A stretch of DNA of 64,000 nucleotides from Escherichia phage vB_Eco_mar004NP2: sequence record NC_048205.1; one strand, given 5' to 3'. The notes below the pieces were generated by a model. That model was given only the letters and a program-made list of their open reading frames with translations, was not told the origin of the DNA and made no database searches. Shown here in pieces: positions 4,098 through 64,000 of the stretch (position 1 is its first letter; every line of letters starts with the position of its first letter). Made by a program: the position numbers and the translations under genes.

Positions 4098-4173
4098 TGT
4101 ATACAGGTAGATAATTTATGTATAATAAAATTCATCCACATTAGGTTAATTTAAAAAACTTAATGGAGGTAAT

Positions 4174-8643: not shown

Positions 8644-9395
8644 TGTCAGTATTAGTCGGTTTACATGGTGAAGCTGGTTCGGGAAAAGATACCGTTGCAA
8701 AATTAATTATCGATTGGTGTAATGACACGTATCCAACGTGTTTACCCCGTCGTTACAGTTTTGCCAAGCCCGTTTATGAACTTGCATCTGTAATCCTCGG
8801 TGTAACTCCAGAGTTTCTAGGAGAGCGCAGGGGAAAAGAGATTGACCAATGGTTTACGGTCACACAATCTCAATTGGAGCGAGCTAGAGACGTATGGTTT
8901 AAATACGGTATCGATAAGTTTGAAGACTTCTCGTACGTTTGGCCGATTTTTGAGGAAAAATATCTTAATCCTCAACAACTTATCTCAGAGAATAAAGAAG
9001 ACGGACTTTATAGTTTATTTATTTCTCCGAGAAAAATGTTACAGCTCGTAGGGACAGAGCTAGGAAGGCAGCTGGTACATGAACGCATTTGGCTCATAAT
9101 TCTGGAGCAATCCATCGCTAAAGACGACCCAGATGTCGCCGTAATAACAGATGTGAGATTCCCCAATGAAGGAGAGCTACTCAGAGAAACAAACCATTTA
9201 GATATGGATTCTTTGATAGTAAATGTAGTACCAGCTGAGCAGAAGTTCACTATTAAATCAGATCATCCATCTGAAAGTGGTATTCCTGCAAAATATATTA
9301 CTCACGAATTAGTTAATAAATTCGATGGTATCAATAACCTTAAACTAGAAGTTTATAACTTCTGTGACTTAGAGCTAGAACCACTAGTTGGATAA
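8643..9395 (+). CDS. deoxynucleoside monophosphate kinase (P-loop)
   Basis: N-terminal P-loop GLHGEAGSGKDT; size 250 aa matches T5-type dNMP kinase. Confidence 0.55.
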   Translation: MSVLVGLHGEAGSGKDTVAKLIIDWCNDTYPTCLPRRYSFAKPVYELASVILGVTPEFLGERRGKEIDQWFTVTQSQLERARDVWFKYGIDKFEDFSYVWPIFEEKYLNPQQLISENKEDGLYSLFISPRKMLQLVGTELGRQLVHERIWLIILEQSIAKDDPDVAVITDVRFPNEGELLRETNHLDMDSLIVNVVPAEQKFTIKSDHPSESGIPAKYITHELVNKFDGINNLKLEVYNFCDLELEPLVG

Positions 9396-9407
9396 TCAAG
9401 GATCGCT

Positions 9408-10007
9408 ATGACTAATAAAAAAGAAGAAAAGACTAACCTGTTTCACTCCATTCGCCAATCTAATGAGTATACCTTTTTCTTTGATGAAGAACTCGGTCCG
9501 CCGGATGAATACCGTGATTTATCAATGGTACTTATGCAAGCAAATGAGGACGACGAAATTAATCTGATGATTAATGGTCCAGGTGGTTATGTTGATACTG
9601 CTGCACAGTTATCTAACTTAATTGCTAATTGCCGTGGAACAGTTATAGGACATCTGGTTGGTCCTAGTGCTTCTGCTTACTGCACAATTTTCCTATCCTG
9701 TCATGGATGGGTAGTACATCCACATGCTACGCTAATGGGACACACGTTCTCTGGCGGATTCTGTGAGAAAGGTCAAGAAATCAAGAAAGCCTATGAATCT
9801 TACAACAAGTTCGTAGAAGATATGATGCTAGATGTCTACTATCCGTTCTTCTCAATAGATGAAATAGACGAGATGGTAAAAGACAACAAAAATATCTATC
9901 TAGATAGCAAGGAAATCCATAAGCGTATTGAAATCTTGGCGAAATATAGATCTGAGCAATATAATAAAATGCAGTTAACTCAATCTGAGGAGCACAACGA
10001 AGAGTAA
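9408..10007 (+). CDS. ClpP-like serine protease
   Basis: LMINGPGGYV motif resembling ClpP INSPGG; 199 aa. Confidence 0.45.
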   Translation: MTNKKEEKTNLFHSIRQSNEYTFFFDEELGPPDEYRDLSMVLMQANEDDEINLMINGPGGYVDTAAQLSNLIANCRGTVIGHLVGPSASAYCTIFLSCHGWVVHPHATLMGHTFSGGFCEKGQEIKKAYESYNKFVEDMMLDVYYPFFSIDEIDEMVKDNKNIYLDSKEIHKRIEILAKYRSEQYNKMQLTQSEEHNEE

Positions 10008-10017
10008 GTAATTTTAA

Positions 10018-10047
10018 GCCAGGGTTAAGTACCCTGGCTTTTCTTTT
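10018..10047 (+). terminator. rho-independent terminator
   Basis: hairpin GCCAGGGT-TAAGT-ACCCTGGC plus TTTTCTTTT. Confidence 0.65.
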
Positions 10048-10109
10048 ATCTAAAATTCTTCTTGACAACGACATAATTTTATGCTCCAAGTGTAACATTT
10101 AAAAACCCA

Positions 10110-10138
10110 TTGAAATTTTCCTCCAAAATTAGTATAAT
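10110..10138 (+). promoter_or_regulatory. sigma70 promoter (-35 TTGAAA, 17 bp, -10 TATAAT) for the lysis cassette
   Basis: hexamers and spacing; followed by GAGGAGG RBS. Confidence 0.5.
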
Positions 10139-10163
10139 GGTACTGGTTAGAGGAGGTTACAAA

Positions 10164-18877: not shown

Positions 18878-19062
18878 TGGAAACTCTTTTTCTTTTAATG
18901 CTCGTAGGTTCCTTGCTAGTTATATTAGCACTTCTACTGATCTGCAATATTCTTAATAATAAGAATCTAGAGCTAAAGTGTGAGAACCAAATCCTTAACC
19001 GTGAACTTAAACAATATAATCTAGCAGCCCATAAACTGTTAGACAAACTGGAGAATAAATAA
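18877..19062 (+). CDS. small TM + coiled-coil protein, 61 aa
   Basis: hydrophobic N-terminus, ATGA overlaps both sides. Confidence 0.4.
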   Translation: METLFLLMLVGSLLVILALLLICNILNNKNLELKCENQILNRELKQYNLAAHKLLDKLENK

Positions 19063-19664
19063 TGTTTACACAACAACCTATTCAAGTAGTACCAGACCAT
19101 GAACTGAACACATGGGATTATAGCCTTAAAGATTTAACTGCTACTGTACAATTCAAATCTATGAAGCTAACATTTGCACACACTGACCTTAGAGCCTGTA
19201 AAGATCTTGAAGGTAAGCTCGAAGATGCTCGTAGGATTTTTGGCACGGCTCGCATCCCGGCTGATAACCTGATTAATGCACTAATCGATGCGGGATACAA
19301 ACTCGTGAAGACTGAGGTGAACCGCCCCAATACTCCAGTGACTATTAGAGACCCGTGGCAGTCAGGGCCAAATACAATGTGGAACAGCCCTAAAATAACG
19401 TCGGATTTGCACAATGTTCCTTGTGGGGGTGTGGTAAGTAGTACGAAGTCATATAAGTTTGGTGAAGATTATGGGCCTTCTGTACAGTTAAAGCATACCC
19501 AAGAAGCTCTTGAATCTGACATGAAAAGCGTAGCGCCTGCGGATACTGAAGGTTTTAGAAGTCCCATCTATGTTACTCACTTTAATAATCTTAGACCTGG
19601 GAGTATAAATGATACTATCCTTGAGGCGTTGGGAGCTGCTCTTAATGAGAGTAAAAAGGATTAA
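19062..19664 (+). CDS. hypothetical protein, 200 aa
   Basis: ORF track. Confidence 0.55.
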   Translation: MFTQQPIQVVPDHELNTWDYSLKDLTATVQFKSMKLTFAHTDLRACKDLEGKLEDARRIFGTARIPADNLINALIDAGYKLVKTEVNRPNTPVTIRDPWQSGPNTMWNSPKITSDLHNVPCGGVVSSTKSYKFGEDYGPSVQLKHTQEALESDMKSVAPADTEGFRSPIYVTHFNNLRPGSINDTILEALGAALNESKKD

Positions 19665-20629: not shown

Positions 20630-20685
20630 TATTCTGCATGTCTCGGTGCACAATACCTGTACCGAGACTCAAATACAAACTCTCG

Positions 20686-20714
20686 TTGACAGATAGCTAA
20701 ATGTATGTTATCAT
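20686..20714 (+). promoter_or_regulatory. strong sigma70-like promoter (-35 TTGACA, 17 bp, -10 TATCAT) firing into a non-coding repeat field
   Basis: perfect -35 and 5/6 -10 with ideal spacing; no ORF with an RBS downstream for 1.6 kb. Confidence 0.45.
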
Positions 20715-21162
20715 AACTCTATGAGTTAATAGAATTAACCATTTAGAGTTGCCACACAGAAGGTGTGGTGGTTCAGTAATTTAAAATTACTAACTTGTAG
20801 CGGAGGATACGGAGCGACAGGACAAGTTAATAAGTAATTTAATATAAATTGCTAGAAACATCACGAGACCTTCTGGCGGGGGCAAAGCTCTATATGAGAA
20901 CCCTGGGGGATCTTATATTTAAAATAAAAGTAAAACTTTTGACCATATAATTTACATTCAAGATGATACACCTGTTGCCGCTCATCTGCTAGGATGGCAC
21001 AACACTTTCTTCTAGACTCCTAAGTTTCTAGGAAAACTCTTACACTCTAGGGCAGTTTCTCTCCAACGTTACATATCCTAGGCCGGTTTAATACAGGGCG
21101 GTTATTGGGAGGGCGGTTATTTCTAGAAGACATTTTTCCAAAACACATTTCCAGAAATTACT

Positions 21163-21764
21163 GTCGGATTCGCACATTGTGTTTCTAGAAATTTATGGTC
21201 GGATTTGCACAATTGCCTAAGTTTTCATGGACACATAATCTCCTGAAAATGGCAGCATTATTTCGGGCCGAAGGCCCATGATTGCCTGAGTTTTTAGAGC
21301 CACAAGAATTTTCACTTGTCAAGCTATTTTGCCACCTTTAGCAAATAAAATTTTACTTTATCTCCACTAATCTCAAATTAACCCAAATCTTCTCAACTCT
21401 TCCCCCAAAAACGCAGCAAATCAGGCGTTGCACGCCACCCATGCTGCTCCTCCAGTTTCTCCACTTATTTTCTCTCGCTCTCTCATCTTCTCCTCAAACC
21501 TATACAATCACACACCCTCCAATCGAAGTCACAAAAATCTTGTCGGATTCGCACATCTTAATCCTAGAAAAACCGTGTCGGATTTGCACATATCCCACAG
21601 GATTCGAACGCAGTTCGAGATTGCTGGAGTTTTTGGGAAAATTCATTGTCGGATTTGCACACTATAAAAATTTTTGGGGTCGGATTTGCACACTACCAAA
21701 AATTGTCGGATTCGCACATACACGCCCGCGCGTAATCCATGGTGGCAAATGTCGGATTTGCACA
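21163..21764 (+). repeat. array of 8 direct repeats GTCGGATT(T/C)GCACA
   Basis: copies at 21163, 21198, 21542, 21577, 21648, 21679, 21705, 21751, all same orientation; candidate injection-stop or protein-binding array. Confidence 0.8.
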
Positions 21765-21796
21765 AAAGCGCAGGGCAATTGCCCTGCGCTAAATAC

Positions 21797-21991
21797 GAAT
21801 GATAATGAGAATCATTCGTATTTAAAAAGCGGAATAAGAATGATAATAGTTCTCATTTAGAAAGTGAAATGAGAATCAATCTCATTTAAGAAAGGGAATG
21901 AGAACTATTCAAAAAATGAAATGATTCTCATTTAAAAAATGGAATGATTATCGGTTAGATAGTGAAATGCGAATGATAATGATTCTCATTT
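21797..21991. promoter_or_regulatory. cluster of about 6 imperfect palindromes AATGAGAAT-N-ATTCTCATT (operator-like; resemble Fur-box halves)
   Basis: copies near 21804, 21845, 21866, 21897, 21918, 21971; further copies at 22328-22348 and 31322-31339. Confidence 0.6.
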
Positions 21992-22096
21992 AAGAATGGA
22001 AGCGAGAAACACTATTATTTAAGTTACCCACAGACTTATTAACAGCACGATTTGATTTGACAGAATCCTAGCCATTTTGAGGCGTTATCAACAGAC

Positions 22097-22105
22097 TTAT
22101 CCACA
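22097..22105 (+). promoter_or_regulatory. DnaA box TTATCCACA
   Basis: exact 9-mer consensus inside left IR arm. Confidence 0.6.
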
Positions 22106-22113
22106 GCTTATCC

Positions 22114-22133
22114 TACTGTATAAATATACAGTA
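22114..22133. promoter_or_regulatory. LexA (SOS) box-like palindrome TACTGTATAAATATACAGTA
   Basis: CTGT-N8-ACAG with AT-rich spacer, 19/20 match to E. coli consensus TACTGTATATATATACAGTA. Confidence 0.55.
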
Positions 22134-22389
22134 TTCCTACGCAGTGAATAATTCTAATATAGCGTTAAAACGTCCTAAATCGCATTCTAACGCGCTTAAT
22201 TTTGATGGGGATACTAAAACAAGGGCAAAATTGGAGGAGGCTTAAAAATTAGTTAGCTTGCTAACGATCACACAAGGCGACACGTAACACCCTAATCATT
22301 AGCAGGCTAACCATCACGGGCGCGGTTAAATGAGAATCACTCTCATTTGAGAATTGGGGGCACTCCCTGGTAGTTGCGCCCCGTTATTA

Positions 22390-22584
22390 TTAGTCTGGTA
22401 GTCGATGCGTGATCTTTTCCTCCTCCCCGTAGGAATCCACCAAATGCTGATAATAACCATCGTGATCATAAATCACTTTATCATACTCGCCACGCTCGAC
22501 CGCTTGTCGGTTTTCCGGCGTATCGGGCACGTAAAAAACATCAACCATTGTACTGATTTTGGTTACAACAATTTTATTGCTCAT
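22390..22584 (-). CDS. cassette gene 7, hypothetical acidic protein (64 aa from internal ATG)
   Basis: ORF track 22390..22614 uses TTG; ATG at 22584 has AGGGG RBS. Confidence 0.4.
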   Translation of the reverse strand: MSNKIVVTKISTMVDVFYVPDTPENRQAVERGEYDKVIYDHDGYYQHLVDSYGEEEKITHRLPD

Positions 22585-22686
22585 AATAACCCCTAGTAAA
22601 TATATTTTTGCCAATAGTGGCGAACGTTATCGCCACCAGCGGAATCATTTGCAGCCTCAACATTACCCGCGAAAATATATATAATC

Positions 22687-23031
22687 TCATTGCGCCACCT
22701 TTCGAAACGCTGTTTCAATACTATCCGCAGTGGATTGAATATACGCGCCTTTCATTATCAGGCGCTCGGTGCATATCTTGCGAAAAATATTAATAAAATC
22801 ATCTTCATTTTCTGCAATTAACGCCTCACCCATGACCTGAACGTCGCAAGATGCAAAGGTCAAAAATTGAAACGCTAGTTCACGGGCAACGACCGCATTG
22901 ATTTTATAATGCGCCTTGCCTTCATAAATATTAATAACGCCCTTATAAGCTGGGGAAAGCTGATTTAAGTAGTTTGCTAGTAATGCCGGACGGCAATTAG
23001 CAACAAAACGATTGCCTTCATAAATTACCAT
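22687..23031 (-). CDS. cassette gene 6, hypothetical protein, 114 aa
   Basis: ATG at 23031 with GGGGAG RBS, 1 nt after upstream stop; the track start 23070 is a TTG that would overlap the upstream gene. Confidence 0.45.
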   Translation of the reverse strand: MVIYEGNRFVANCRPALLANYLNQLSPAYKGVINIYEGKAHYKINAVVARELAFQFLTFASCDVQVMGEALIAENEDDFINIFRKICTERLIMKGAYIQSTADSIETAFRKVAQ

Positions 23032-23032
23032 T

Positions 23033-23245
23033 TTATAGCACTCCCCGAAACGCAGCGTAAAAGGTGGCAAAATGTTTAACTGTTTCAGCTATCACGTTGC
23101 CCCGTTTATCGAATTTTTTCTCGGTAACACGGAAGGCGTTTTTATTTCGCGCTACATATTCAATTTTACAATCTTCCCGCTCGAACGTGTTAACGTCCAC
23201 CAGCTTAAAGCCTTTTGAACGTGCAAGGGAAACGTTACGAATCAT
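23033..23245 (-). CDS. cassette gene 5, hypothetical basic protein, 70 aa
   Basis: ORF directly after small TM ORF. Confidence 0.45.
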   Translation of the reverse strand: MIRNVSLARSKGFKLVDVNTFEREDCKIEYVARNKNAFRVTEKKFDKRGNVIAETVKHFATFYAAFRGVL

Positions 23246-23247
23246 TT

Positions 23248-23397
23248 TTATTCTCCTTTACTAGTCATGCAGCCCAGCAGATAAGAAAATACAGCGATAC
23301 CCGCACCAATAATAACCGCGTGAACGCCGAAAGCTATTGCAAAAAGTGATAAAATAGCGCCCAAGATACCTGCTAGAATAGCTCGAAAAATAACCAT
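23248..23397 (-). CDS. cassette gene 4, small hydrophobic protein, 49 aa (not in ORF track)
   Basis: ATG after AGGAGG RBS; MVIFRAILAGILGAILSLFAIAFGVHAVIIGAGIAVFSYLLGCMTSKGE, two predicted TM helices. Confidence 0.35.
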   Translation of the reverse strand: MVIFRAILAGILGAILSLFAIAFGVHAVIIGAGIAVFSYLLGCMTSKGE

Positions 23398-23446
23398 TTG
23401 TGATAGCCTCCTAGTTATCGGGGGATATTATATCCCCCGTTATTAA

Positions 23447-23677
23447 TTACATTAAAACAATTTTTGCAGCTTGTTTTTTGGTGCAATGTTCCGCCTTCAG
23501 GGTATCCAGCAAAAAGCCAGCCGTTTGCTGATCGATTTTATCGGCGTTATATAGTTCCTGAATGGTATTATAGGTTTTAGCAATACCGAACTCCTGCACC
23601 ATTTCATAGATGACAGCACGATTAGATACCCAGCCTTGCGCGGTAAACAGATGACTAGCAGAAGAATAAGCAACCAT
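23447..23677 (-). CDS. cassette gene 3, hypothetical protein, 76 aa
   Basis: internal ATG at 23677 with GGAGG RBS preferred over track start 23710. Confidence 0.45.
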   Translation of the reverse strand: MVAYSSASHLFTAQGWVSNRAVIYEMVQEFGIAKTYNTIQELYNADKIDQQTAGFLLDTLKAEHCTKKQAAKIVLM

Positions 23678-23783
23678 TTTAAGCCTCCAAATTTTTGGGA
23701 AAATTTTCAACCGTCCTTAAACGGTGTAAAGGCATTATAACAAAAAAGGCCACCAATTATGGCGACCTTTACAAAACTTTACA

Positions 23784-24278
23784 TTAAACTACTTGTAATG
23801 TTTCAATATTGAAACATCGTTTCAATTCGTCATGCAAAACAGCGTATTCATCCCATCGGGTACTATCAGGGATATAAACAAGCTGTTTTAGTCGGTTTGC
23901 GTATATTACCGCTTTATTTCCGATTATTTCAGCGCCACCATATTTAATAATTAATTTCATGACGGAATTAATAGGATCGCCGCCGTTTACATATGTGCCG
24001 GATTTACTTAATTGATAATGATAAAGGCTTGCATATACATTATCATTCTCATACCATTCGCCCGTTTCCTCATCTTCATAGCCATCGCTACCAAAACGAG
24101 AAGCATTATCAACAGCCATTTCATGAGCGAAAGCGTCGAGATCCGTACCAGCAGGAACAAAATATTCCTCAGTATTCCCTTCACCGCAATAGCCAGTATG
24201 ACAATCGACCAAAATGATCATATCATGTTTAGCCTTGCTCACTTCCCCTAGCGAAAACCCATATTTTTCCTCAGCCAT
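23784..24278 (-). CDS. cassette gene 2, hypothetical acidic protein, 164 aa
   Basis: ATG with AGGAGG RBS; no recognisable motif. Confidence 0.55.
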   Translation of the reverse strand: MAEEKYGFSLGEVSKAKHDMIILVDCHTGYCGEGNTEEYFVPAGTDLDAFAHEMAVDNASRFGSDGYEDEETGEWYENDNVYASLYHYQLSKSGTYVNGGDPINSVMKLIIKYGGAEIIGNKAVIYANRLKQLVYIPDSTRWDEYAVLHDELKRCFNIETLQVV

Positions 24279-24343
24279 TTATTAGCCTCCTATTAATTAA
24301 TAAGGGAATAGTAAAGCGGGGAAACAATCCCCGCTAAATATTA

Positions 24344-25336
24344 TTACTCGCTTTCGGTGCTAGTGGTAAAAGTAGAAATATCGATACCTTTCACCATTTC
24401 ATCAATCATTTCAGCGATGTTAAAACTTTGCACCATTTCTAGCATTGCCGCTTCCATAGCTGCGCCTGCTACCGCTTTCGCTTTCTGGTTATTCGGGGCG
24501 TACTGGTCAACCGCTACGCTCAGCAGGTTAGCAATAACTACCCGACCAATCGGCGTATCAATATAACCTTTAATCATAAACGGCGCTTTTTTAGCCGCTA
24601 CTTTCGTGATTTGAGTCAATGCAATTTTGCCAGCTTCCAGTTTTGCAGCATTTACAACAGCGGATTTATTAGCGGCAACGATATTAGCGATCTTGGTCAT
24701 GGTATTATTTCCTTTGTTTTCAGTAGTTTGAGTGTTAACGCTTTGAGTGTTAGAATTTACAGCATGTTTTTCCGTGTTGTCAATAGGCTGATCTTCCTCC
24801 TTCCAGAAAGAAAAGCCCGCGCTTTCAATATCCCCATCATATACATAAGGGTACACTTCCGACGGTAACAAAAAATTACCGTTATCATCAAAGGCCATTA
24901 CAGCCGCGAAACGATACCCGTCACAATCCGACCGATTCCAGCCAACTGATAAATAACGCCAAAATGAATCAAGAAAATTTTCAATATCATAAAGATCATT
25001 GGGGTTGGCTTCATAATTTTCTATTGAAAAAACTTCTAAGCCTGCCCCAGTATCATAGGCTTTTACTGTGCTACCTTTTACGATTATGAAATCAGTATCC
25101 GGCCCTCGACTAGTGAGCAATTGATAATCTTGATTATATAAAACAAGCGTTGCCCCTTGTTTATATAACGGTAGAAAACTATTCATATCATAGGCATCGA
25201 AATCACCAAAAAAGTTTTGGTGAATAGTTTCAGCCTTGTTAATAAAATGTTTAATGCTGGTTGTTCTGCTACCGTCCAGCAGGTTACGCAGCGCACCTTT
25301 TAAGACGGTTGCGTTATCTGGTTTATATAGCCTCAT
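24344..25336 (-). CDS. cassette gene 1, hypothetical two-domain protein, 330 aa (Ala/Lys-rich C-terminal third)
   Basis: ATG with GAGGGAGG RBS; preceded by own promoter. Confidence 0.6.
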   Translation of the reverse strand: MRLYKPDNATVLKGALRNLLDGSRTTSIKHFINKAETIHQNFFGDFDAYDMNSFLPLYKQGATLVLYNQDYQLLTSRGPDTDFIIVKGSTVKAYDTGAGLEVFSIENYEANPNDLYDIENFLDSFWRYLSVGWNRSDCDGYRFAAVMAFDDNGNFLLPSEVYPYVYDGDIESAGFSFWKEEDQPIDNTEKHAVNSNTQSVNTQTTENKGNNTMTKIANIVAANKSAVVNAAKLEAGKIALTQITKVAAKKAPFMIKGYIDTPIGRVVIANLLSVAVDQYAPNNQKAKAVAGAAMEAAMLEMVQSFNIAEMIDEMVKGIDISTFTTSTESE

Positions 25337-25367
25337 TTGTTGGCCTCCCTCGTTAATCGGTGAGTGA

Positions 25368-25397
25368 ATGATAAAGGCAATTTTCTAGCATAGGCAA
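25368..25397 (-). promoter_or_regulatory. sigma70 promoter of antisense cassette (-35 TTGCCT, 18 bp, -10 TATCAT on - strand)
   Basis: hexamers read on reverse complement, AT-rich upstream element, about 30 nt upstream of gene 1 start. Confidence 0.5.
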
Positions 25398-25472
25398 ATA
25401 TTATTTTACCTTTTTATTTTCCTTGCCTAGCGCCTAGTTTTATGCTAACCGCGCAGCGGTACAGTAAAGAGC

Positions 25473-25510
25473 AAAACACGGTGAAGCCACCAGGGCGACG
25501 GGTGAAGGCT
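25473..25510. terminator. hairpin GTGAAGCC...GGCTTCAC, terminator-like on both strands
   Basis: stem with T-rich flank on either strand, between right IR and cassette promoter. Confidence 0.4.
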
Positions 25511-25601
25511 TCACTTTAATATTACCCCACCGCATTTAGCTCGTTAGAAAGCGTTTTAGGCCGCCTAAAATTGATTGCAGTTGTTAACACTACCTTTTTA
25601 C

Positions 25602-25712
25602 CCTGTATATTTATACAGTAGGATAACATGTGGATAAGTCTGTGGATAAGTCCTTATATCGTCGCCTATCGTGTCAAATCATTTTGTGCTGTTAATAAAC
25701 TTGTGGATAACT
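25602..25712. repeat. right arm of inverted repeat; contains LexA-like box CTGTATATTTATACAG (25603-25618) and three DnaA boxes
   Basis: TGTGGATAA at 25629, 25641, 25702 (reverse complement of TTATCCACA). Confidence 0.8.
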
Positions 25713-25994
25713 TAAATGATAGTGGTTCTCACTTAGGACGATAGTTTCTTATAGTTATTATTTCTATCGGTTACGATTTCTTATAATTATTATTTCTCAT
25801 TAATTTATAAGTATATTATATATCATGAAATAGTTAGTTGGCTAATGAGATTTTCCGTGATTAATAGTCTGCTAACAGTTCCGGCTGTTACAATCCACCA
25901 GCATGATTATCATCCTAGCAACTATTAGTCTGCTATCTTTCCGATGCATACTAACAAATAAAAGTCAATTAATTTATTTCATAAAATAAGTAGT

Positions 25995-26027
25995 TATCCA
26001 CTGGAAAATAAAAGTCAAGTGGATAAC
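25995..26027. promoter_or_regulatory. pair of DnaA-box-like sites (TTATCCACT / AGTGGATAA) in inverted orientation
   Basis: 8/9 matches to TTATCCACA; TTATCAACA also at 26061. Confidence 0.45.
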
Positions 26028-26482
26028 TAGGAAAATTTCATTTTTGCTTTTGGGGATAAGTTATCAACAAGGCTAGAATGCGCCTAAAACGCCCTATAAC
26101 GCGATGAAGTTTTTAGCCATGCCATTGCATTGCCTACCCTCGTTTATCGCTACCACGAGCTTTTTAGTTTTTGTCAAGTAGGGCAAGGCAAATATAAATG
26201 AAAAAATTACTTGCCAACCTGCTGGGTTTTATGGTATTCGCGCGCCCGTTTCCTTTAATTTTAGTGCGCCGCGCCCAGGTCGCCGCACGGTGTCCGGTGG
26301 CATTTTGTCTTTACGTTTCTTTACAAAAATAAGGTTGCGCCATTTTTACTATTTGCTATTATTTATCTCGTAGGGCGGCAATGACGAACTACACGGCGGG
26401 AAGTTTACCGCCGCGCTCTTTAAAAATTGGGTACATCTTAAAGTCTATCGGCGGTAAACTTATATTATAAGGAATCGCAGAT

Positions 26483-26686
26483 ATGAAACAAACTTTATTG
26501 ATCACTGGTAAACCAGCTAAAAAATTAGATGGTACTACTAAAAAATTGTTGACAATAGCCCAGCAATCCGTAAAATACCGATTTGCTCAGTACAAGAAAG
26601 GCCGCCAGCAGGGTTTAGAAATGATCTGGCGTAATATTATGATCGACCTGAAAGAAAATCATAAAAAACTGCAAAAAACAGTTTGA
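26483..26686 (+). CDS. pre-early small basic protein, 67 aa
   Basis: ATG after TAAGGAATCGCAG; host-like codon usage. Confidence 0.45.
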   Translation: MKQTLLITGKPAKKLDGTTKKLLTIAQQSVKYRFAQYKKGRQQGLEMIWRNIMIDLKENHKKLQKTV

Positions 26687-26916
26687 CACCCTAGCCGATA
26701 GGCTTTAAGATGTACCCAGTTCGATGAGAGCGATAACTTGATACAATTTGACGGTTAGGTGATTCCCCATAAATCATCCTGCCCCCTAACTGGGATATAG
26801 CAGCCTGCGTGGAGTTCCTTAAATTGATTATAGCGGTGAGCGGATTGTTGCTTATTACCTGCTACTTTCTAGCAGGTAATGCGGAACAATCCCCTAAATA
26901 ACTTGGAGTTTATACT

Positions 26917-27168
26917 ATGCAAAACGTTATTACCGCGCCTAAAATTGGTCAATCCGTTTTTATTCCTTTCGTTACTAAAACGGATGAACTAACCGGAAAA
27001 GCCGAACGTATTAAAGGTGCGGCGCTTATGCCGTTTGATACAATCGACGCGGTATACGCTGAAAATGAACGTAGTAACAACGGCAAAACCGTTTTTAGCG
27101 TTCGCGTTAAATCCGGCGACGTTGTAAAGGTTGTACAGCGTAACGAAAAATGGGAAGCTGTAGCGTAA
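26917..27168 (+). CDS. pre-early hypothetical protein, 83 aa
   Basis: conserved TIR TTGGAGTTTATACT-ATG; followed by hairpin. Confidence 0.5.
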   Translation: MQNVITAPKIGQSVFIPFVTKTDELTGKAERIKGAALMPFDTIDAVYAENERSNNGKTVFSVRVKSGDVVKVVQRNEKWEAVA

Positions 27169-27264
27169 TAGTGTTACTTTTATATCCCCCAGTAGTTCGG
27201 GGGATATAACGATTAACATTATGTTAATCTTATCCCTTAAATTAAACTAATAGGAGTTTTTACC

Positions 27265-27672
27265 ATGACTAACGTTAAAACCGCAAAATTTGCTTGGAAT
27301 GAAGAAAACACTCAAAAAGCTGTTTCTATGTACCAGCAGTTAATTAATGAAAACGGTTTAGATTTCGCAAATAGCGACGGTTTAAAAGAGATTGCAAAAG
27401 CAGTGGGCGCGTCTTCTCCCGTGTCTGTTCGCTCAAAATTGACCAGCGCAAAAGCGTATCAGAAAAGCGATAAGCCTCGCAAAGTTGGCGGCGGTAGCTC
27501 AATCCGCAAAGCTCACTATGTACGCGTTATCGCTAAACATGCTATTGATTCCGGCATTATTAAAGACGCCGACGATCTGGCAAGTCTGGAAAGTGCAAAA
27601 CTTGAAACGCTGGACGCCGTAGCGCAACTGTTAGGCGTTGCCGATGAAGTAAAACAGGCCGCAGGTGAATAA
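27265..27672 (+). CDS. A2: pre-early protein, 135 aa; candidate A2-like DNA-binding protein
   Basis: size and position next to A1-like gene as in T5; assignment by synteny only. Confidence 0.35.
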   Translation: MTNVKTAKFAWNEENTQKAVSMYQQLINENGLDFANSDGLKEIAKAVGASSPVSVRSKLTSAKAYQKSDKPRKVGGGSSIRKAHYVRVIAKHAIDSGIIKDADDLASLESAKLETLDAVAQLLGVADEVKQAAGE

Positions 27673-27728
27673 ATTTAATTAGTGGGGAATATTCCCCACT
27701 ATAATTTCCCTTTGACTGGAGTTTTAAA

Positions 27729-27926
27729 ATGATCTTTTACCCCACTGAATCGTTAATTTTAGGCTTATTTATTATGGCGGCCTCGTTATTATTCGCTTAT
27801 TTTCAAAATGATTTAGACTCATATTATTTTAAACGTAAGTCTAAATTGGCAAAGCGTTTAGGTCTGATTTGTTTTATTGCCGCCATTGCTTGTGGTGTTA
27901 GTTCTAGCCTTATGCCTTTAAATTAA
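27729..27926 (+). CDS. pre-early small membrane protein, 65 aa
   Basis: two hydrophobic helices; TIR CTGGAGTTTTAAA-ATG. Confidence 0.45.
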   Translation: MIFYPTESLILGLFIMAASLLFAYFQNDLDSYYFKRKSKLAKRLGLICFIAAIACGVSSSLMPLN

Positions 27927-28023
27927 TGTTGCAAATTATAACGCCTATTATTCAAGGCGTTATATTTGGCAATATTTGCCAATAACAAACGTTTTTTAAT
28001 CCCTTTAATGGAGTTTTATTAAT

Positions 28024-29688
28024 ATGATTATTTCCGCAGAAAAACAAACCGTTATCCTGAAAATGGCCGCTGACTTTAATTTCTATGGTAAACGTCTGCG
28101 CGCTACTAAACTGGAGGTCTGCGACGATATATCAAAAGCGGTCTACGATACAACAAAACACTCGACCGCTATCTGCGACTGGTTGGAAGCAAATAAACCA
28201 GCTAAACCGAAAGCGGCGAAAGTAGCAAAAGCCATTAAAAACGATGAGCGTCCAGAAGCGGCGGGGATTGTTTCTAGCACGGTTGAGCAATGGGAAGTAA
28301 AGCAGGGTAAACGCTTTATTATTACGTCGATTCAGAATAATACTTTCCCGCATAAAAACTTTTTAGCCTCATTGGAGCAATTTGCTAAATATATCGGCGC
28401 TGATTTGCTGGTTAGCAAGTTTATTTATAACAAAAACGGTTTTCAAAATGGCGAGGGTGCAGAAGGAATAAAATATGATTCCGCATTTGACAAATATATC
28501 TGCAATAAAAACGTGTTTTTAAATAACCGCCGTTTTGCTTTCATGGCTGAAATTAACGTTTTGCCAACCGCAGATTATCCGCTTTCTGGATTCGCTGAAA
28601 CTGCAACGGCGCTTAATCTGGAAGGTCTGGCAATTGGTCACGCTAAAATTACCGCTGAAAGCGTGCCAGCTTTAAAAGGTGAAGTAGTGCGCCGTATGTA
28701 CTCAACCGGAACGGCAACGCTCAAAAACTACATTCAGCAGAAAGCAGGACAAAAGGCCGAGGCGCTGCATAACTTCGGTGCGCTAATTGTCGAGTTCGAC
28801 GAGGACGGGGAATTTTTTGTACGCCAGCTCGAAACGATGGACGAAAGCGGGGTATTTTATGATCTGAATGTGTGCGCTACTCCTGCCGGATGCTATGAGA
28901 CATCGGGGCATGTTTTAGGCTTGCAATACGGCGATATTCACGCAGAAAAACTAGATGATGATTGTGCCGTTGCGTCATGGGCTGGCGAAAATAGCTTGCT
29001 TGATATTCTCAAGCCTAAATATCAGTTTATCCATGACGTGCATGATTTTACATCACGCAACCATCACAACCGCGCATCCGGTGTATTCCTAGCAAAACAA
29101 TACGCCGCCGGACGTGATAAGGTATTAGATGATCTTATCGATACGGGGCGCGTGCTGGAATCAATGGAACGTGATTTCTCGCAAACAATCATTGTTGAAT
29201 CTAATCACGATTTGGCGCTATCCCGTTGGCTTGATGATCGTAATGCTAACATTAAAGACGATCCAGCAAACGCGGAACTATATCACCGCCTAAATGCCGC
29301 GATTTATGGAGCTATTGCAGAAAAAGACGATACTTTCAACGTGCTAGATTATGCGCTGCGCAAGGTTGCAGGTTGTGAGTTTAACGCCATTTTTCTAACT
29401 ACTGACCAATCTTTCAAGATTGCAGGCATTGAATGCGGCGTACACGGTCACAACGGCATTAACGGCAGCCGTGGCAATCCTAAACAATTTAAGAAATTGG
29501 GCAAATTAAACACCGGACACACTCACACCGCCAGCATTTATGGCGGCGTGTATACCGCTGGCGTAGCTGGTAGTCTGGACATGGGTTACAACGTTGGCGC
29601 GTCAAGCTGGACGCAAACGCATTTAATTACCTATGCAAACGGTCAGCGCACTTTGATTGACTTTAAAAACGGTAAATTCTTTGCGTAA
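28024..29688 (+). CDS. A1: A1-like pre-early protein (554 aa, metallophosphoesterase-type motifs)
   Basis: size close to T5 A1; motifs GDIHAEK, HDFTSRNHH, ESNHD, GHTHT; TIR ATGGAGTTTTATTA. Confidence 0.55.
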   Translation: MIISAEKQTVILKMAADFNFYGKRLRATKLEVCDDISKAVYDTTKHSTAICDWLEANKPAKPKAAKVAKAIKNDERPEAAGIVSSTVEQWEVKQGKRFIITSIQNNTFPHKNFLASLEQFAKYIGADLLVSKFIYNKNGFQNGEGAEGIKYDSAFDKYICNKNVFLNNRRFAFMAEINVLPTADYPLSGFAETATALNLEGLAIGHAKITAESVPALKGEVVRRMYSTGTATLKNYIQQKAGQKAEALHNFGALIVEFDEDGEFFVRQLETMDESGVFYDLNVCATPAGCYETSGHVLGLQYGDIHAEKLDDDCAVASWAGENSLLDILKPKYQFIHDVHDFTSRNHHNRASGVFLAKQYAAGRDKVLDDLIDTGRVLESMERDFSQTIIVESNHDLALSRWLDDRNANIKDDPANAELYHRLNAAIYGAIAEKDDTFNVLDYALRKVAGCEFNAIFLTTDQSFKIAGIECGVHGHNGINGSRGNPKQFKKLGKLNTGHTHTASIYGGVYTAGVAGSLDMGYNVGASSWTQTHLITYANGQRTLIDFKNGKFFA

Positions 29689-29744
29689 ATAATTAATCCC
29701 CTAGCGGCTTGAAATATAGCCGCTATTACAGGAGCTAAATTAGA

Positions 29745-30002
29745 ATGAAAGTTACATTACCCAAAACGCTAGACGAAAAAGCATTTATTTCACCGGATGA
29801 AATGGAATCCGATAAAGTTTACAGCTTCGGGCCTATTCTAGCCGCCAAAACTAATACTGATGGGATTATTACGGTCGATTATCGTGATAATGATATTGTA
29901 CCCTTTGACGATGATGGTGCTTTTTATGAGTGGCTAAGCGATAATAATTTACCCGTAAACGGTGAATTAACGCCGTACCAGATGCAGATTATTATCAAAT
30001 AA
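29745..30002 (+). CDS. pre-early acidic protein, 85 aa
   Basis: ORF with CAGGAGCTAAATTAGA RBS. Confidence 0.5.
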   Translation: MKVTLPKTLDEKAFISPDEMESDKVYSFGPILAAKTNTDGIITVDYRDNDIVPFDDDGAFYEWLSDNNLPVNGELTPYQMQIIIK

Positions 30003-30040
30003 ATTAAATCCATTATTAAACTAATTGGAGTTTTATAAAC

Positions 30041-30433
30041 ATGAAAAAGCAAAATATTCCATTTGACCGCGCTCAATCCTCAATTGTTCTGGTTTATTCT
30101 AATGGTGAGCGTTACCACGTCGAGGCGGGGCACGTTATTGATGAATTGCTAGATTTCAATGACGCTTTGCAGGTTACAACATTTGCATATATGCAAGGCA
30201 AACTAACTAGCCATATTAAAGCAAAAGGCGTTTATGTTGACACGGTGAAACAAGAAACGATTATCATCGACGCAGTAAAATCCGGTCTAACCTTTGCAGT
30301 TGTCGCGCCTTGCCCCGCTTGCCTTGATGATCAATTGATTTCTGCAAAAGTATATACTTGTGCGGGGATTCGTTCCCATGTATCAGGTGAGGATGTTAGT
30401 TTTATCGCCGATGCGTTGGCTTATGGTCTTTAA
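30041..30433 (+). CDS. pre-early hypothetical protein, 130 aa
   Basis: TIR TTGGAGTTTTATAAAC-ATG. Confidence 0.5.
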   Translation: MKKQNIPFDRAQSSIVLVYSNGERYHVEAGHVIDELLDFNDALQVTTFAYMQGKLTSHIKAKGVYVDTVKQETIIIDAVKSGLTFAVVAPCPACLDDQLISAKVYTCAGIRSHVSGEDVSFIADALAYGL

Positions 30434-30512
30434 TAGTTAATTTATTATTACCCGCTTATAAATAGCGGGTAATGCTGAATTAATCTAATCCCTTAAATGG
30501 AGAACGTAACAA

Positions 30513-31247
30513 ATGAATAAAGCTATCATGAATCTTTCCCGCAGCTTCCCGCATATTTCCCGCGTCATGATTTGGGATTTAGACGGCACTATCATTAATT
30601 CTTTCCATCGTGTAGCACCCTGCTTTGATAGCGAGGGCAATTTAGATTTAAATAAGTATAAAAATGAAGCGTGTAAACACCATTTAATAATGCAAGATAC
30701 TTTATTGCCATTGGTTGAATATATGCGCCAGTGCATGAATGACGCAAATACTTTAAACATTATTTGCACCGCTCGACTGATGAGTAAGTCGGACTATTAT
30801 TTCTTGCGTAAACAAGGGTTGCGCGGTCGTGGTAATAGTAATATCCGCGTATTTTCCCGCGATACACTACACAAATATTTTAAAGCTGATAAGGTTAGCG
30901 AAATATACCACAGCAAAGACGCAGTATATAAATCTTATTATTTTGAATTATTTAAACAGTTATATCCTAACGCTGATTTTACAATGATTGATGATCATAA
31001 AGGCGTGCTATCAGCGGCAGCGTCATACGGATTTAAAACGCTGGACGCACAAGCCGTTAATGATATTCTATCAATCGGCGTGGCATTGATAGGTGAAACC
31101 TTTATTGATGAATCTCTCGACGATGATAATGATTATCAATTCCTAGCTGACCGTTTAAAATTATGCTGGGAAGGTATGACCGAGGAAGAACGCGCAGAAT
31201 ATAGTTGCAGTCCTCAACAATATATTGAGAAATTAAAAGTTGCCTAA
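30513..31247 (+). CDS. dmp: 5'-deoxyribonucleotidase (HAD-like), Dmp-like
   Basis: 244 aa as in T5 Dmp; HAD motif I in VMIWDLDGTIIN; last gene of the island. Confidence 0.55.
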   Translation: MNKAIMNLSRSFPHISRVMIWDLDGTIINSFHRVAPCFDSEGNLDLNKYKNEACKHHLIMQDTLLPLVEYMRQCMNDANTLNIICTARLMSKSDYYFLRKQGLRGRGNSNIRVFSRDTLHKYFKADKVSEIYHSKDAVYKSYYFELFKQLYPNADFTMIDDHKGVLSAAASYGFKTLDAQAVNDILSIGVALIGETFIDESLDDDNDYQFLADRLKLCWEGMTEEERAEYSCSPQQYIEKLKVA

Positions 31248-31399
31248 CAATTAAAGTTGAAATAGTCACGGTGTGTAATGATACCATGCCGTGACTATTA
31301 GCCTGCTAAGTACCGGGCGGTAATGAGACTCATTCTCATCTGGGGGGCCACTGGACACACCCACGCGTACGTAATCCAAAGAAATTGGCAAAAGTCAAA

Positions 31400-34351: not shown

Positions 34352-34834
34352 ATGGCAAATGATGTATTAGTACCAGATCTTATGTCCCCTGAAGGGATGG
34401 ATGTAATTGAAGCATATTTACAGTGTGGCAGCGATGTGCCTTCTGCCGCACGTAGTCTTGGGATGTCCGAAATTGCTTTTCGAGATATTATGAATCGTAG
34501 TGAAGTTAAGAACTACTTAAATGATATTTTTATGGAGAGTGGTTTCCGTAACAGAGATCGTTTATTTGGTGTTCTGGATGAAGTTATCAAGCGTAAACTA
34601 GAGGAACTAGAAGAAACTGGCATGGGTTCTGACCAAGATATTATGGATATTCTCTGGAAAGCACATAAAATGAAAATGGAAGAAATGAAAATGATGGTAG
34701 AACTGGAGAAAGTGAAGGCAGCAGCCCGTACTCCAGCTAACCAGACCAACATCCAGAATAATATTATTGCTGGAGCTGGGGATCAAAACTACATGGACTT
34801 AATTACTTCCCTAGCTACTGGAGGTAAGAAGTAA
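34352..34834 (+). CDS. terS: terminase small subunit (putative)
   Basis: 160 aa, immediately upstream of and coupled to terminase large subunit. Confidence 0.45.
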
Positions 34835-62273: not shown

Positions 62274-64000
62274 TTATTCTAAGTAGGAAAATCCTTCTGC
62301 ATCTTTTTTGACAGTAATCTTATGGGCCAATGGATGCGTATGCCCATGAGAAACAATGATAGAGTTTAGACTTTCTTCCTCATTTAATAATTCAACAAGG
62401 GTGTCAAGTCCTTTCGTATCAATAAAGCTAATTACTTCATCAAGGAATAGAAGATTAATATTAACTTTACTAATAGATGTTAGTAGCATTCGAATAGCTA
62501 ACAGAGTTGCTAGGTTGATTCGACTTTGCTGACCAGTAGAGCAGTTCTCCATACTGGTACGGTTTCCATCATTGAAGATTACTACTTGTAATTTTGTTTC
62601 ATCAAGTTCAAATCCAAGTGCGAACTTACCACCAGTCATAATGGAAAGGTATTTATTAATTAGTTCTTCAAATACTTTCACACTATGCTCTAGCTTATAC
62701 CCTACCAGATTTTTCAATGCGGCGATCAGAATATCGAGATCAGCAACAGCTTCTGATACTTCATCCAGTTTGGAAGTAATCTCAGACATTTCTGCCTCAG
62801 CTTTCTCAATCTGTTCTAGTTTCGCTTTATATTTTGCATTGGCTAATTCAACATTTGCATTATGCTCTTTGGCAATTGCAACCTTAGAACGTCCATCAGC
62901 AATTTCCTGTTCTAATTGTCGTATTTGCACCTGTAGGTTTTGCACATTGAGTTCTTCAAAAGAAGCATCACTCATTGAATTTTTGAACTCGTCTCTAGCT
63001 GCTACTGCTTTATCCAAAGCATCCTTTGCTCTAATATACGTAGTGTACTCAAGTTGTTCTTTCTTCAGCTGTTCTAGCTTGGTTTCAAGAGATTGCTTCT
63101 CTTTGAACAGAGGATCATATTCTGTTCTAGCCATATCCATTGCTTTTTGAGCAGCAGTTGTATCCAGGTGAGTACCACAAGTAGGACATTCAGTATTTGA
63201 AGCCTCTTGCTTGAACTTCTGATAACGTTTCTTGACTTCGCCCGCACGTGAGGTCACAATCGTTAGGTCACGCGTAACACTCGAGATCTCTTCATTTTGG
63301 TCGGTGGGCGCAGGCAAATTTTTGAAAGGCTCGAAAGATTGTTCGGCAACTTGTACAGCTTTGTCCAAATTACGCAATTTAGTAATATTAGCCTCTTGAG
63401 ACTTGGCTAATGCCGCCTTAATTTTCGATTCTGTAAGTTCTTGTGCTAATGGTTCTTCATCAAATTCTGGTACTTCGACTGGTTCTTGTAAGGTTCCCAA
63501 GTTATTCTTTCCATTAAGGATTTTTGTAATTACAGCCATTTGGCCCTGCAAATTATTTAAGGTATTTGCTATTTCTTTACGGTCAGCCTTAATAGTTTCT
63601 GACATTTCTTTATACTGTTCTTGATTGAACAAGTTAACAAGAAAAGCCTTACGTGTTGCATCTGTTGCTTTGAGGAAGTCTAGATTGGAACCAACAGATT
63701 GATAGATTAGTTTAGTGAATGTTTGGAAGTCACCACCCATAATCTCTTCAATCATCTTGTACGTTTGAGTTGCTGTGTGTCCACTGATATCTTCTCCATT
63801 CTTAATCAGTGTAACCTTAGCAGTTGATTTAACTACTTTATGCAATTCATACTCATCTTCATCTTTCGAGAAGTAAGCATGCATATCATACTCTTTCTTC
63901 GGAGAACCCCAAGAGAATAGGGCGTCCTTCTTGATACCACGTGAGTTCTTGTTATAAAACAATTCCTCAATAACAGTAGCAATAGTGGACTTCCCTAGAC
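62274..64000 (-). CDS. SbcC/Rad50-like ATPase (D13-like), 5' end beyond window
   Basis: long coiled coil, C-terminal signature/Walker B region (LLFLDEVISFID); the reading frame continues upstream past the window end. Confidence 0.6.
   Translation of the reverse strand, partial: LGKSTIATVIEELFYNKNSRGIKKDALFSWGSPKKEYDMHAYFSKDEDEYELHKVVKSTAKVTLIKNGEDISGHTATQTYKMIEEIMGGDFQTFTKLIYQSVGSNLDFLKATDATRKAFLVNLFNQEQYKEMSETIKADRKEIANTLNNLQGQMAVITKILNGKNNLGTLQEPVEVPEFDEEPLAQELTESKIKAALAKSQEANITKLRNLDKAVQVAEQSFEPFKNLPAPTDQNEEISSVTRDLTIVTSRAGEVKKRYQKFKQEASNTECPTCGTHLDTTAAQKAMDMARTEYDPLFKEKQSLETKLEQLKKEQLEYTTYIRAKDALDKAVAARDEFKNSMSDASFEELNVQNLQVQIRQLEQEIADGRSKVAIAKEHNANVELANAKYKAKLEQIEKAEAEMSEITSKLDEVSEAVADLDILIAALKNLVGYKLEHSVKVFEELINKYLSIMTGGKFALGFELDETKLQVVIFNDGNRTSMENCSTGQQSRINLATLLAIRMLLTSISKVNINLLFLDEVISFIDTKGLDTLVELLNEEESLNSIIVSHGHTHPLAHKITVKKDAEGFSYLE

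Follow-up and report, generated by a model that had tools for sequence, protein, structure and literature searches.

How phage T5 stops and restarts the injection of its DNA has been a question since the 1960s, and papers of 2020–2026 call the mechanism poorly understood. In the genome of Escherichia phage vB_Eco_mar004NP2 (NC_048205.1), a stretch of 64,000 nucleotides, hereafter the window, contains an array of short direct repeats in the region to which the stop signal is assigned in T5. The question raised by this locus is which protein reads these repeats, and whether they belong to the stop, to the restart of DNA transfer or to another process at the genome end.

Repeat Array and Its Genomic Setting

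A pattern search with GTCGGATTYGCACA revealed eight exact matches in the array, all of them on the plus strand (Table 1); in 100 dinucleotide-preserving shuffles of the sequence, 0 matches to this pattern were obtained. The start-to-start spacings are 35, 344, 35, 71, 31, 26 and 46 bp, and the gaps between the 14-bp units range from 12 to 330 bp. The initial annotation had reported eight copies in the same orientation with irregular spacing, and both properties were reproduced, the start-to-start distances being 26–344 bp. Its total is correct for the array, but a ninth exact copy on the same strand had been overlooked. The ORF containing this copy is the orthologue of T5.019 and belongs to phrog_5271, with function unassigned; in T5 this intragenic copy is likewise exact, and in Epseptimavirus it differs at one position. 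Other near-matches in the window, with up to three mismatches, occur at chance level or within a coiled-coil coding sequence. The sites at 62918 and 62933, which have two mismatches each and are 15 bp apart, are located in the coiled-coil CDS 62274..63962 on the minus strand and were rejected as chance or coding repetition.

The array is located in a gap of 1.76 kb (20630–22390) between convergent ORFs, which occupy the plus strand up to 20629 and the minus strand from 22390. The proposal that this stretch is non-coding is reasonable, since no CDS is annotated in the homologous stretch of T5 and close relatives vary across it by indels that are not multiples of three.

Table 1. Features of the repeat region and genes of the candidate readers in the window (caret, predicted nick; slash between sequences or positions, genome end)
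Feature	Position	Strand	Characteristics
Ninth exact DRD copy	19400..19413	+	Within ORF 19062..19664; in-frame ..T S D L H N..
DRD copy GTCGGATTCGCACA	21163..21176	+	Outer cluster, 120 bp beyond the end of the terminal repeat; T5 orthologue, copy 8
DRD copy GTCGGATTTGCACA	21198..21211	+	Outer cluster, 85 bp beyond the end of the terminal repeat; T5 orthologue, copy 7
Inferred right physical genome terminus (inner end of the direct terminal repeat)	21296/21297	.	...GAGTTTTTA/GAGCCACAAG... on the plus strand
G-poor tract	21297..21541	+	From the terminus to the inner DRD cluster; G = 20/245
DRD copy	21542..21555	+	Inner cluster, within the terminal repeat at 245 bp from the terminus; T5 orthologue, copy 6
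DRD copy	21577..21590	+	Inner cluster; orthologue of T5 copy 5
DRD copy	21648..21661	+	Inner cluster; T5 copy 4
DRD copy	21679..21692	+	Inner cluster; T5 copy 3
DRD copy	21705..21718	+	Inner cluster; T5 copy 2
Predicted major nick module	21732..21775	+	GTAATCC (21732-21738), 29 nt including the last DRD copy, A^GCGCAGGG; predicted nick 21767/21768
DRD copy	21751..21764	+	Innermost, T5 copy 1; flanked by GTAATCC and GCGCAGGG, elements of the nick site predicted at 7.9%
Fur-box-like palindromes and paired DnaA or DnaA-like boxes	21800..22107	.	Palindromes 21804-21990; boxes 22024-22044 and 22085-22105; same non-coding block as the array
A2 gene, pre-early DNA-binding protein	27265..27672	+	Candidate DRD reader; predicted helix-turn-helix, recognition helix almost invariant
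Small terminase candidate	34352..34834	+	phrog_3802; named sciB in AY587007; rival reader

Orthology with Direct Repeat D of Phage T5

The region matches more than 450 records of T5-like phages at 80–95% identity, in agreement with the earlier assignment of this DNA to a T5-like phage, and the window is colinear with the T5 genome (AY543070) in reverse orientation. It crosses the collapsed junction of the terminal repeats, with the homologue of T5 base 1 at window position 31357; genes of the receptor-binding protein, the small and large terminase subunits and the portal protein are located beyond this point.

On the equivalent strand, the T5 genome contains eight exact copies of the motif, one copy with a single mismatch and one copy inside gene T5.019. 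The motif sites of T5 are annotated in AY587007 as “direct repeat D copy 1” to “copy 9” (DRD), with the unit TGTGCRAATCCGACA, which is the complement of GTCGGATTYGCACA; the same motif is found at the annotated DRD positions of T5. According to the same record, “major single-stranded nick 1, 7.9%” directly precedes copy 1, and the left terminal repeat ends between copies 6 and 7. By sequence comparison, the array of vB_Eco_mar004NP2 is the orthologue, copy for copy, of this T5 element and is therefore a previously described feature. The “nine DRD repeats” of T5 are described in a preprint (Davison 2020), which gives them no role. The additions made here are the relation of the array to the terminus and to the nick, a family-wide core motif and a candidate reader.

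The T5 element (Repeat Region 3, in the annotated iss region) and the array of vB_Eco_mar004NP2 share the 14–15-bp unit, the strand, the order and the spacings of copies, as well as the location between the last pre-early and the first early genes, with six copies inside the terminal repeat, two or three outside it and the 7.9% nick alongside. They differ in that copy 9 of T5, the one-mismatch copy ATCGGATTTGCACA, is absent from vB_Eco_mar004NP2 because of a 46-bp deletion, and in that the distance between the first two inner copies exceeds that of T5 by 10 bp. The 14-bp unit and the uneven gaps do not correspond to a CRISPR array, in which repeats of 23–50 bp alternate with uniform spacers.

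Position of the Array at the Genome Terminus

The end of the left terminal repeat of T5 (10219 in AY543070 and 10139 in AY587007), the right ends of the genomes of HASG4 and NBEco002, which were deposited independently with both repeats present, and the repeat end of BF23 derived from reads by PhageTerm (9743) all map to the same point of the window, 21296/21297. By homology, the terminal repeat corresponds to 21297..31357, and in the T5 orientation the terminus reads ...GTGG(C/A)TC/TAAAAACTCAGGCAAT... Several IMG/VR contigs stop 243–246 bp ahead of the inner cluster. In Pectobacterium phage My1, the sequence is recognisably homologous, and the annotated end of the terminal repeat is located in the gap between an outer cluster of four copies and an inner cluster of six. 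The only discordant repeat annotation is that of Kenya-K20, which ends right after a DRD copy and was treated as an annotation or assembly artefact. Misplacement of PhageTerm-type repeat ends at the nick was considered and rejected, the end found in BF23 being the same terminus as that of T5.

Because all mapped ends represent one point, two copies of the array fall beyond the terminal repeat, at distances of 85 and 120 bp, and six within it, 245–454 bp from its end. Judged from these alignments, the array brackets the physical right terminus of the genome; two to four DRD copies are consistently located outside the terminal repeat, and none was found near the left terminus. Conservation across the region is highest in the block that surrounds the terminus, and the sequence GATTGCCTGAGTTTTT, which abuts the cut, is found twice more, after or between DRD copies. 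The array had been placed in the initial annotation just inside the boundary between the early genes and the pre-early island and compared with the T5 stop signal at the inner end of the first-step-transfer DNA. Its location at the inner end of the terminal repeat agrees with this, but the two outer copies lie beyond the first-step-transfer DNA as conventionally defined.

Conservation of the Motif and of Its Layout

In a set of eight genomes, selected by similarity of the whole region and not by the motif, differences among orthologous copies are confined to position 1 (G/A) and position 9 (T/C). The distance from the first to the second inner copy is 35 bp in vB_Eco_mar004NP2, BF23 and Kenya-K20 and 25 bp in T5, HASG4, NBEco002 and Epseptimavirus, the motif being intact in both arrangements; one extra DRD copy was gained in Epseptimavirus. 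An alignment of 18 genomes gave values of 0.967 for the motif columns and 0.894 elsewhere, but this statistic is biased because the loci were retrieved through the motif, and it is superseded by the comparison of eight genomes. In 38 related stretches from IMG/VR, each array keeps its copies on a single strand, and the pattern of spacings hardly varies.

The core GGATTYGCAC, its strand and the layout in two clusters are retained in phages whose flanking sequences no longer align, namely, in My1, with the unit RTCGGATTTGCAC, in the Klebsiella phages Kpn13-P3 and K7_rec16 and in the Enterobacter phage KKP_3711. Vibrio phages contain the core variant GAATYCGCAC. A related but distinct unit, TAGAATCCGCACTCACA (GAATCCGCAC), was found in Vibrio phage PG07 with the same layout and strand; the Fur-box-like palindromes and TTATCCACA boxes next to it show no change. 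In D333, a very distant Vibrio phage, only two core copies, TTGAATTCGCACAT (GAATTCGCACAT), are present, at the equivalent place and on the equivalent strand. No array was detected around the predicted repeat end of Proteus phage Stubb, where only two GGATTTGCAG units are present, on the opposite strand. Given Stubb, which has no array, and D333, with its two core copies, the presence of the array throughout Demerecviridae was rejected.

A search for paired core sites in 185,579 genomes, one per bacterial species, yielded 58 loci, none of them in Enterobacterales or Vibrio, which argues against a host regulon. The pattern of conservation points to a reader protein that is kept within the phage family and drifts with it, and not to a host regulator. 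The DRD copies, nine non-palindromic sites of 14 bp on the same strand, are probably iterated binding sites of a sequence-specific protein encoded by the phage. Iterated protein binding had been proposed in advance, and the conservation pattern corresponds to it: the motif varies at two positions only, one copy has moved with the motif intact and the core is kept across lineages. The comparative results narrow the question, since the repeats resemble sites of a conserved phage protein, rather than of a host factor, and bracket the physical genome end.

Candidate Reader Proteins

Two candidate readers, A2 and the small terminase, were compared. A2 is annotated as a DNA-binding protein required, together with A1, for DNA transfer. 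Its model (pLDDT 85) contains a predicted helix-turn-helix at residues 38–47 and 52–61, followed by a basic linker at 62–76. The segment of the second helix, S-x-x-(S/K)-V-R-S-K-L, is the most conserved stretch in every lineage examined: A2 of enterobacterial phages, which have GGAT cores, contains S(P)(V/H)xVRSKL, that is, SP(V) or SH(V), and A2 of two Vibrio lineages, which have GAAT cores, contains SA(A/Q)SVRSKL. The model of the small terminase is of low confidence (pLDDT 59) and includes a predicted N-terminal helix-turn-helix with helices at residues 29–36 and 40–47. The predicted recognition helix (residues 40–47) is the most variable part of this protein among lineages with the same core, being represented by EEPKFREIMRK in Klebsiella phages, KEVDCRLMLQK in My1 and PQETVMSIYNR in KKP_3711; the T5-like phages differ again. 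For both proteins, no relatives in the PDB were found by sequence and no Pfam family was assigned; a Foldseek search of the PDB with the A2 model gave no significant match, and the literature searched contains nothing specific on the target sequences of A2.

The core motif is thus co-conserved with the helix of A2 and not with that of the terminase, which favours A2 over the small terminase as the reader of DRD; the comparison, made on sequences and predicted structures, is circumstantial and amounts effectively to one phylogenetic split.

The explanation considered best, to which a probability of roughly 0.35 may be given, is that the DRD copies are docking sites for A2 that lie at the far end of the first-step DNA and serve, together with A1, in restarting transfer. 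The inner cluster of six sites occupies the last 245–470 bp of the terminal repeat, at the distal end of the first-step DNA, and A2 produced from this DNA could load on this cluster beside the entry channel. Together with A1, it would release or pull the paused DNA, and the outer sites may be captured as the second-step DNA emerges, the array acting as a restart handle and not as the stop itself. The location of the inner cluster within the annotated iss region, next to the 7.9% point, and the genetic requirement for A1 and A2 in second-step transfer, recorded in the annotation of A2, are consistent with this explanation. A point against it is that DRD copy 1 begins ~55 bp rightward of the nominal 7.9% shear point, so that the sites might not yet have left the channel when transfer pauses. 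A fuller version, offered tentatively, is that the array represents a specific docking platform for A2 (with A1) on the distal first-step DNA, astride the genome terminus and the 7.9% nick, that may be reused late by the terminase and the nicking function (sciB) on concatemers. If docking of A2 is correct, the array and A2 would be the first defined pair of a cis-element and a protein for the two-step DNA transfer of T5.

Further observations stand against A2 as the reader: the array always brackets the genome terminus, which is unexplained by the A2 model, and Proteus phage Stubb retains the A2 helix (SVRTKL) despite having no array.

Possible Role in Packaging and Terminus Recognition

The main rival to the docking of A2 is recognition of the terminus during packaging, a possible but not a probable explanation. 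In this case, the two clusters would flank the terminase cut that produces the right genome end and would load the small terminase (SciB) or an accessory factor, placing the cut at 21296/21297. The evidence on the terminus agrees with it: the cut is located between the clusters in T5, HASG4, NBEco002, BF23 and My1, at distances from the outer and inner clusters (85 and 245 bp) that correspond to an adjacency of the pac/cos type; several IMG/VR contigs end at 243–246 bp before the inner cluster; and both the conservation of the terminus block and the recurrence of GATTGCCTGAGTTTTT among the DRD copies would fit a cleavage signal. Furthermore, the small terminase has a predicted N-terminal helix-turn-helix with no target known, and no pac site of T5 was found in the literature searched. 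This explanation is weakened by the predicted recognition helix of the small terminase, which differs strongly among lineages sharing the core; the terminase model is of low confidence (pLDDT 59), and no DRD copy is present near the left terminus. The layout shared by these phages is inherited synteny and is therefore not independent evidence for a role in packaging.

The pacL and pacR repeats of SPP1 and the R sites of lambda cosB are binding repeats of the small terminase next to the cleavage site. The DRD array resembles them in having two groups of short repeats that flank or adjoin the cut at the genome end, but binding of the terminase is only putative in T5-like phages, the terminase helix is not co-conserved with the motif, and T5 has terminal repeats of 10 kb and not cohesive or headful ends. 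Short-repeat arrays, SRL and SRR, are also located beside the terminal repetition of T7. In both cases, short direct repeats are immediately beside the boundary of a direct terminal repeat in a phage that injects one end first; however, the sequences are unrelated, and the T7 arrays flank both ends of a repeat of 160 bp, whereas the T5 array is found at one boundary only of a 10-kb repeat.

Relation to the Injection Stop Signal

It is unlikely that the array is the injection stop itself, where a bound host or virion protein, or sites lodged in the tail or portal, would halt transfer at ~8%. Six of the eight copies fall within the “injection stop signal (iss)” annotated in AY543070 at 9140–10149, and in reviews the stop region is presented as a field of repeats with no assigned role. 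The array starts about 50–130 bp from the nominal 7.9% point, to the right of 7.9% of the genome length by ~55 bp in AY587007, where the nominal shear point is 9618, and by 130 bp in AY543070, which is within measurement error. However, the iss label in T5 was assigned by position only, and the literature places the stop further to the left: the DnaA-box inverted repeat IRD'spacerIRC' and the DRE repeats are favoured as the stop signal (Davison 2020, preprint), and these elements correspond to window positions of about 21790–22110. In two papers of 2026, the stop signal is characterised only as a repeat-rich non-coding region whose mechanism is not established. The copies that are always found outside the terminal repeat (two to four) also speak against a stop, as does the drift of the motif in Vibrio phages, where the neighbouring host-type boxes do not drift; with no paired sites in any genome of Enterobacterales or Vibrio searched, no host factor is indicated. 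The earlier view of the array as a candidate for an element of the injection-stop kind holds for the location of six of the eight copies in the annotated iss, but not for the two copies beyond the repeat, and the elements favoured in the literature are different ones.

Other Proposed Roles: Nick Specification, DnaA Boxes, RNA and Iterons

The remaining explanations, namely, specification of the nick, weak DnaA boxes, an RNA decoy and an iteron or partition site, are disfavoured because each fails a specific test.

The innermost copy is followed by AAA^GCGCAGGG, and the sequence ...GTCGGATTTGCACAAAA^GCGCAGGG is identical to the T5 nick site; the predicted nick is homologous to the annotated T5 nick 9748/9749, which by homology only places DRD copy 1 directly beside predicted major nick 1 (7.9%). 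The published consensus of T5 nicks is R^GCGCRGG. Beyond this consensus, all three nicks annotated in the first 50 kb of T5 have GTAAT 35–36 nt upstream and GCGCAGGG downstream, and none of the RGCGCRGG sites without GTAAT is annotated as a nick. That the DRD copies help to specify or regulate the 7.9% single-strand nick of the sci system is very improbable. The position of the innermost copy between GTAATCC and ^GCGCAGGG, the sequence RGCGCAG after the last copy in T5-like phages, Klebsiella phages and KKP_3711, and the name sciB of the small-terminase orthologue are in its favour, but the GTAAT/GCGCAGGG signature is present with no DRD at the major nicks 22337 and 39747 of T5 and at window position 8824. 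Accordingly, DRD repeats are not required for nicking; moreover, a single adjacent copy would leave nine copies unaccounted for.

It is equally doubtful, to a high degree, that the copies are weak DnaA boxes or other host-factor sites extending the field of DnaA boxes. The sequence ATTTGCACA matches the 9-mer TTWTNCACA at 8/9 positions, and genuine DnaA boxes (22024–22105) are located 260–340 bp away, but position 1 of the box is never matched in the DRD copies, the C variant ATTCGCACA matches at only 7/9 positions and the invariant GTCGG half is left without explanation. In addition, the DRD-equivalent motif is altered in PG07 while TTATCCACA is kept, and paired sites are absent from the genomes of Enterobacterales and Vibrio searched.

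Action at the RNA level, in which a transcript from the promoter-like sequence 20686–20714 would carry GUCGGAUUYGCACA units as a decoy for a protein, for example, a GGA-binding one, is scarcely credible and was rejected. The sigma-70-like site is strong (11/12, with TG) and directed into the region, every copy is on one strand, and the plus strand of the inner cluster folds better than shuffled sequences (z = −3.4); however, the fold signal comes mostly from a 24-bp palindrome and from pairing between repeats, with no recurrent hairpin per unit. No Rfam family was found at threshold, the best matches, SprD and PrrF, being far below the gathering scores, and the Vibrio variants contain no GGA. 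Since the terminus cuts the array, the copy at the right end of the genome would have no promoter.

An iteron of a replication origin or a partition (centromere) site, also suggested in the initial annotation, is unlikely, with a probability close to nil. Iterons of plasmids and phages, like the DRD copies, occur several times on one strand, are not palindromic and presumably have a monomeric DNA-binding domain as reader, and the array is located close to DnaA boxes and a strand-asymmetric tract. It differs from them in its shorter unit of 14 bp and in irregular spacings (26–344 bp) with no helical register or phasing, and the two upstream ORFs, the only ones scanned in this respect, match no Rep, ParA or ParB family and contain no Par domains. 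T5-like phages are virulent. The origins of T5 have been mapped to the middle of the genome (cited in Davison 2020, preprint).

Signature of the major nick sites

R/GCGCRGG is the whole of the published nick consensus, and further determinants must exist according to its authors (PMC3517423). A longer signature is common to the major nick sites: GTAAT(CC) located 35–36 nt upstream, together with R^GCGCAGGG. In the region 1–50 kb of T5, the two elements coincide at the three annotated major nicks and nowhere else; where RGCGCRGG lacks GTAAT, no nick is annotated. The 64.8% nick may be located at window position 63307, which has GTAAC at −33 and the sequence ^GCGCAGGC. A perfect 24-bp palindrome, AGCGCAGGGCAA/TTGCCCTGCGCT, has its first base at the predicted 7.9% nick, and therefore the nick core GCGCAGGG is present on both strands; the upstream GTAAT is found on one strand only.

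The orthologue of the gene assigned by PHROGs to the small terminase subunit is called SciB both in phage Spc35 and in the T5 record AY587007, after a gene that genetics links to single-chain interruptions. These names suggest the participation of the terminase complex in nicking.

Coordinates and sequence characteristics of the features
Feature	Location	Strand	Motif or basis
Major nick signature	window 8789–8831	+	GTAAT(CC) + R^GCGCAGGG
Major nick signature	window 21732–21775	+	GTAAT(CC) + R^GCGCAGGG
Major nick signature	T5 9749, 22337, 39747	−	GTAAT(CC) + R^GCGCAGGG
24-bp palindrome	window 21767–21790		AGCGCAGGGCAA/TTGCCCTGCGCT
Small terminase subunit	window 34352–34834	+	PHROGs call
9-1-9 palindromes	window 21804–21990, 22329–22347, 31322–31340		AATGAGAATnATTCTCATT; resemblance to Fur 7-1-7 box
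Perfect Fur box	window 31124–31138		TGATAATGATTATCA; one copy
G-poor tract	window 21297–21541		G = 20/245
Terminal repeat, single copy	window 21297–31357		~10.06 kb
Promoter-like site	window 20686–20714	+	TTGACA, 17 nt, TG-TATCAT
Triple repeat	window 21083–21125		GG(G/C)CGGTT(T/A)

Terminal repeat and genome terminus

A strongly strand-asymmetric, G-poor tract begins exactly at the inferred genome terminus; its T5 counterpart contains 19 G in 244 nt, and the repeat start of Pectobacterium phage My1 is likewise C/T-rich. At the junction 31357/31358, where the terminal repeat is collapsed, the homologue of the T5 unique right end joins directly onto the homologue of T5 base 1, and the source assembly therefore contains one repeat copy. 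The annotated end of the direct terminal repeat (DTR) of Kenya-K20 (OQ291032), at 4172/4173, directly follows a copy of DRD, the 14-bp direct repeat, and is ~430 bp off the terminus common to T5, BF23, HASG4 and NBEco002. This placement is probably an artefact that the repeats caused in assembly or annotation.

Fur-box-like palindromes

FhuA, the T5 receptor, is Fur-regulated. The window contains six 9-1-9 palindromes AATGAGAATnATTCTCATT (0.08 expected by chance). These and the perfect Fur box are all located within the two end portions of the terminal repeat. My1, Klebsiella phages and Vibrio phage PG07 carry similar palindromes, and a single one can be seen in Proteus phage Stubb. Fur is not mentioned in Davison's preprint.

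Elements outside the DRD array

The near-consensus sigma-70 promoter-like site (11/12) is located directly after the last early ORF and the hairpin of that ORF, and faces into the repeats of the non-coding region; no gene is annotated downstream. The triple repeat (aggccggttta, agggcggttat and agggcggttat) is located just beyond the outer DRD cluster. Two copies of AGGGCGGTTAT are present in every aligned T5-like relative, as well as in Enterobacter phage KKP_3711.

GGATTYGCACA also occurs in pairs in 58 unrelated bacterial contigs (loci L066–L123), mostly MAGs of Bacteroidales and other bacteria, which probably represent unrelated repeat families. Some of these loci are periodic, for example L117 (5610–5830), with three matches and an 84-bp period.
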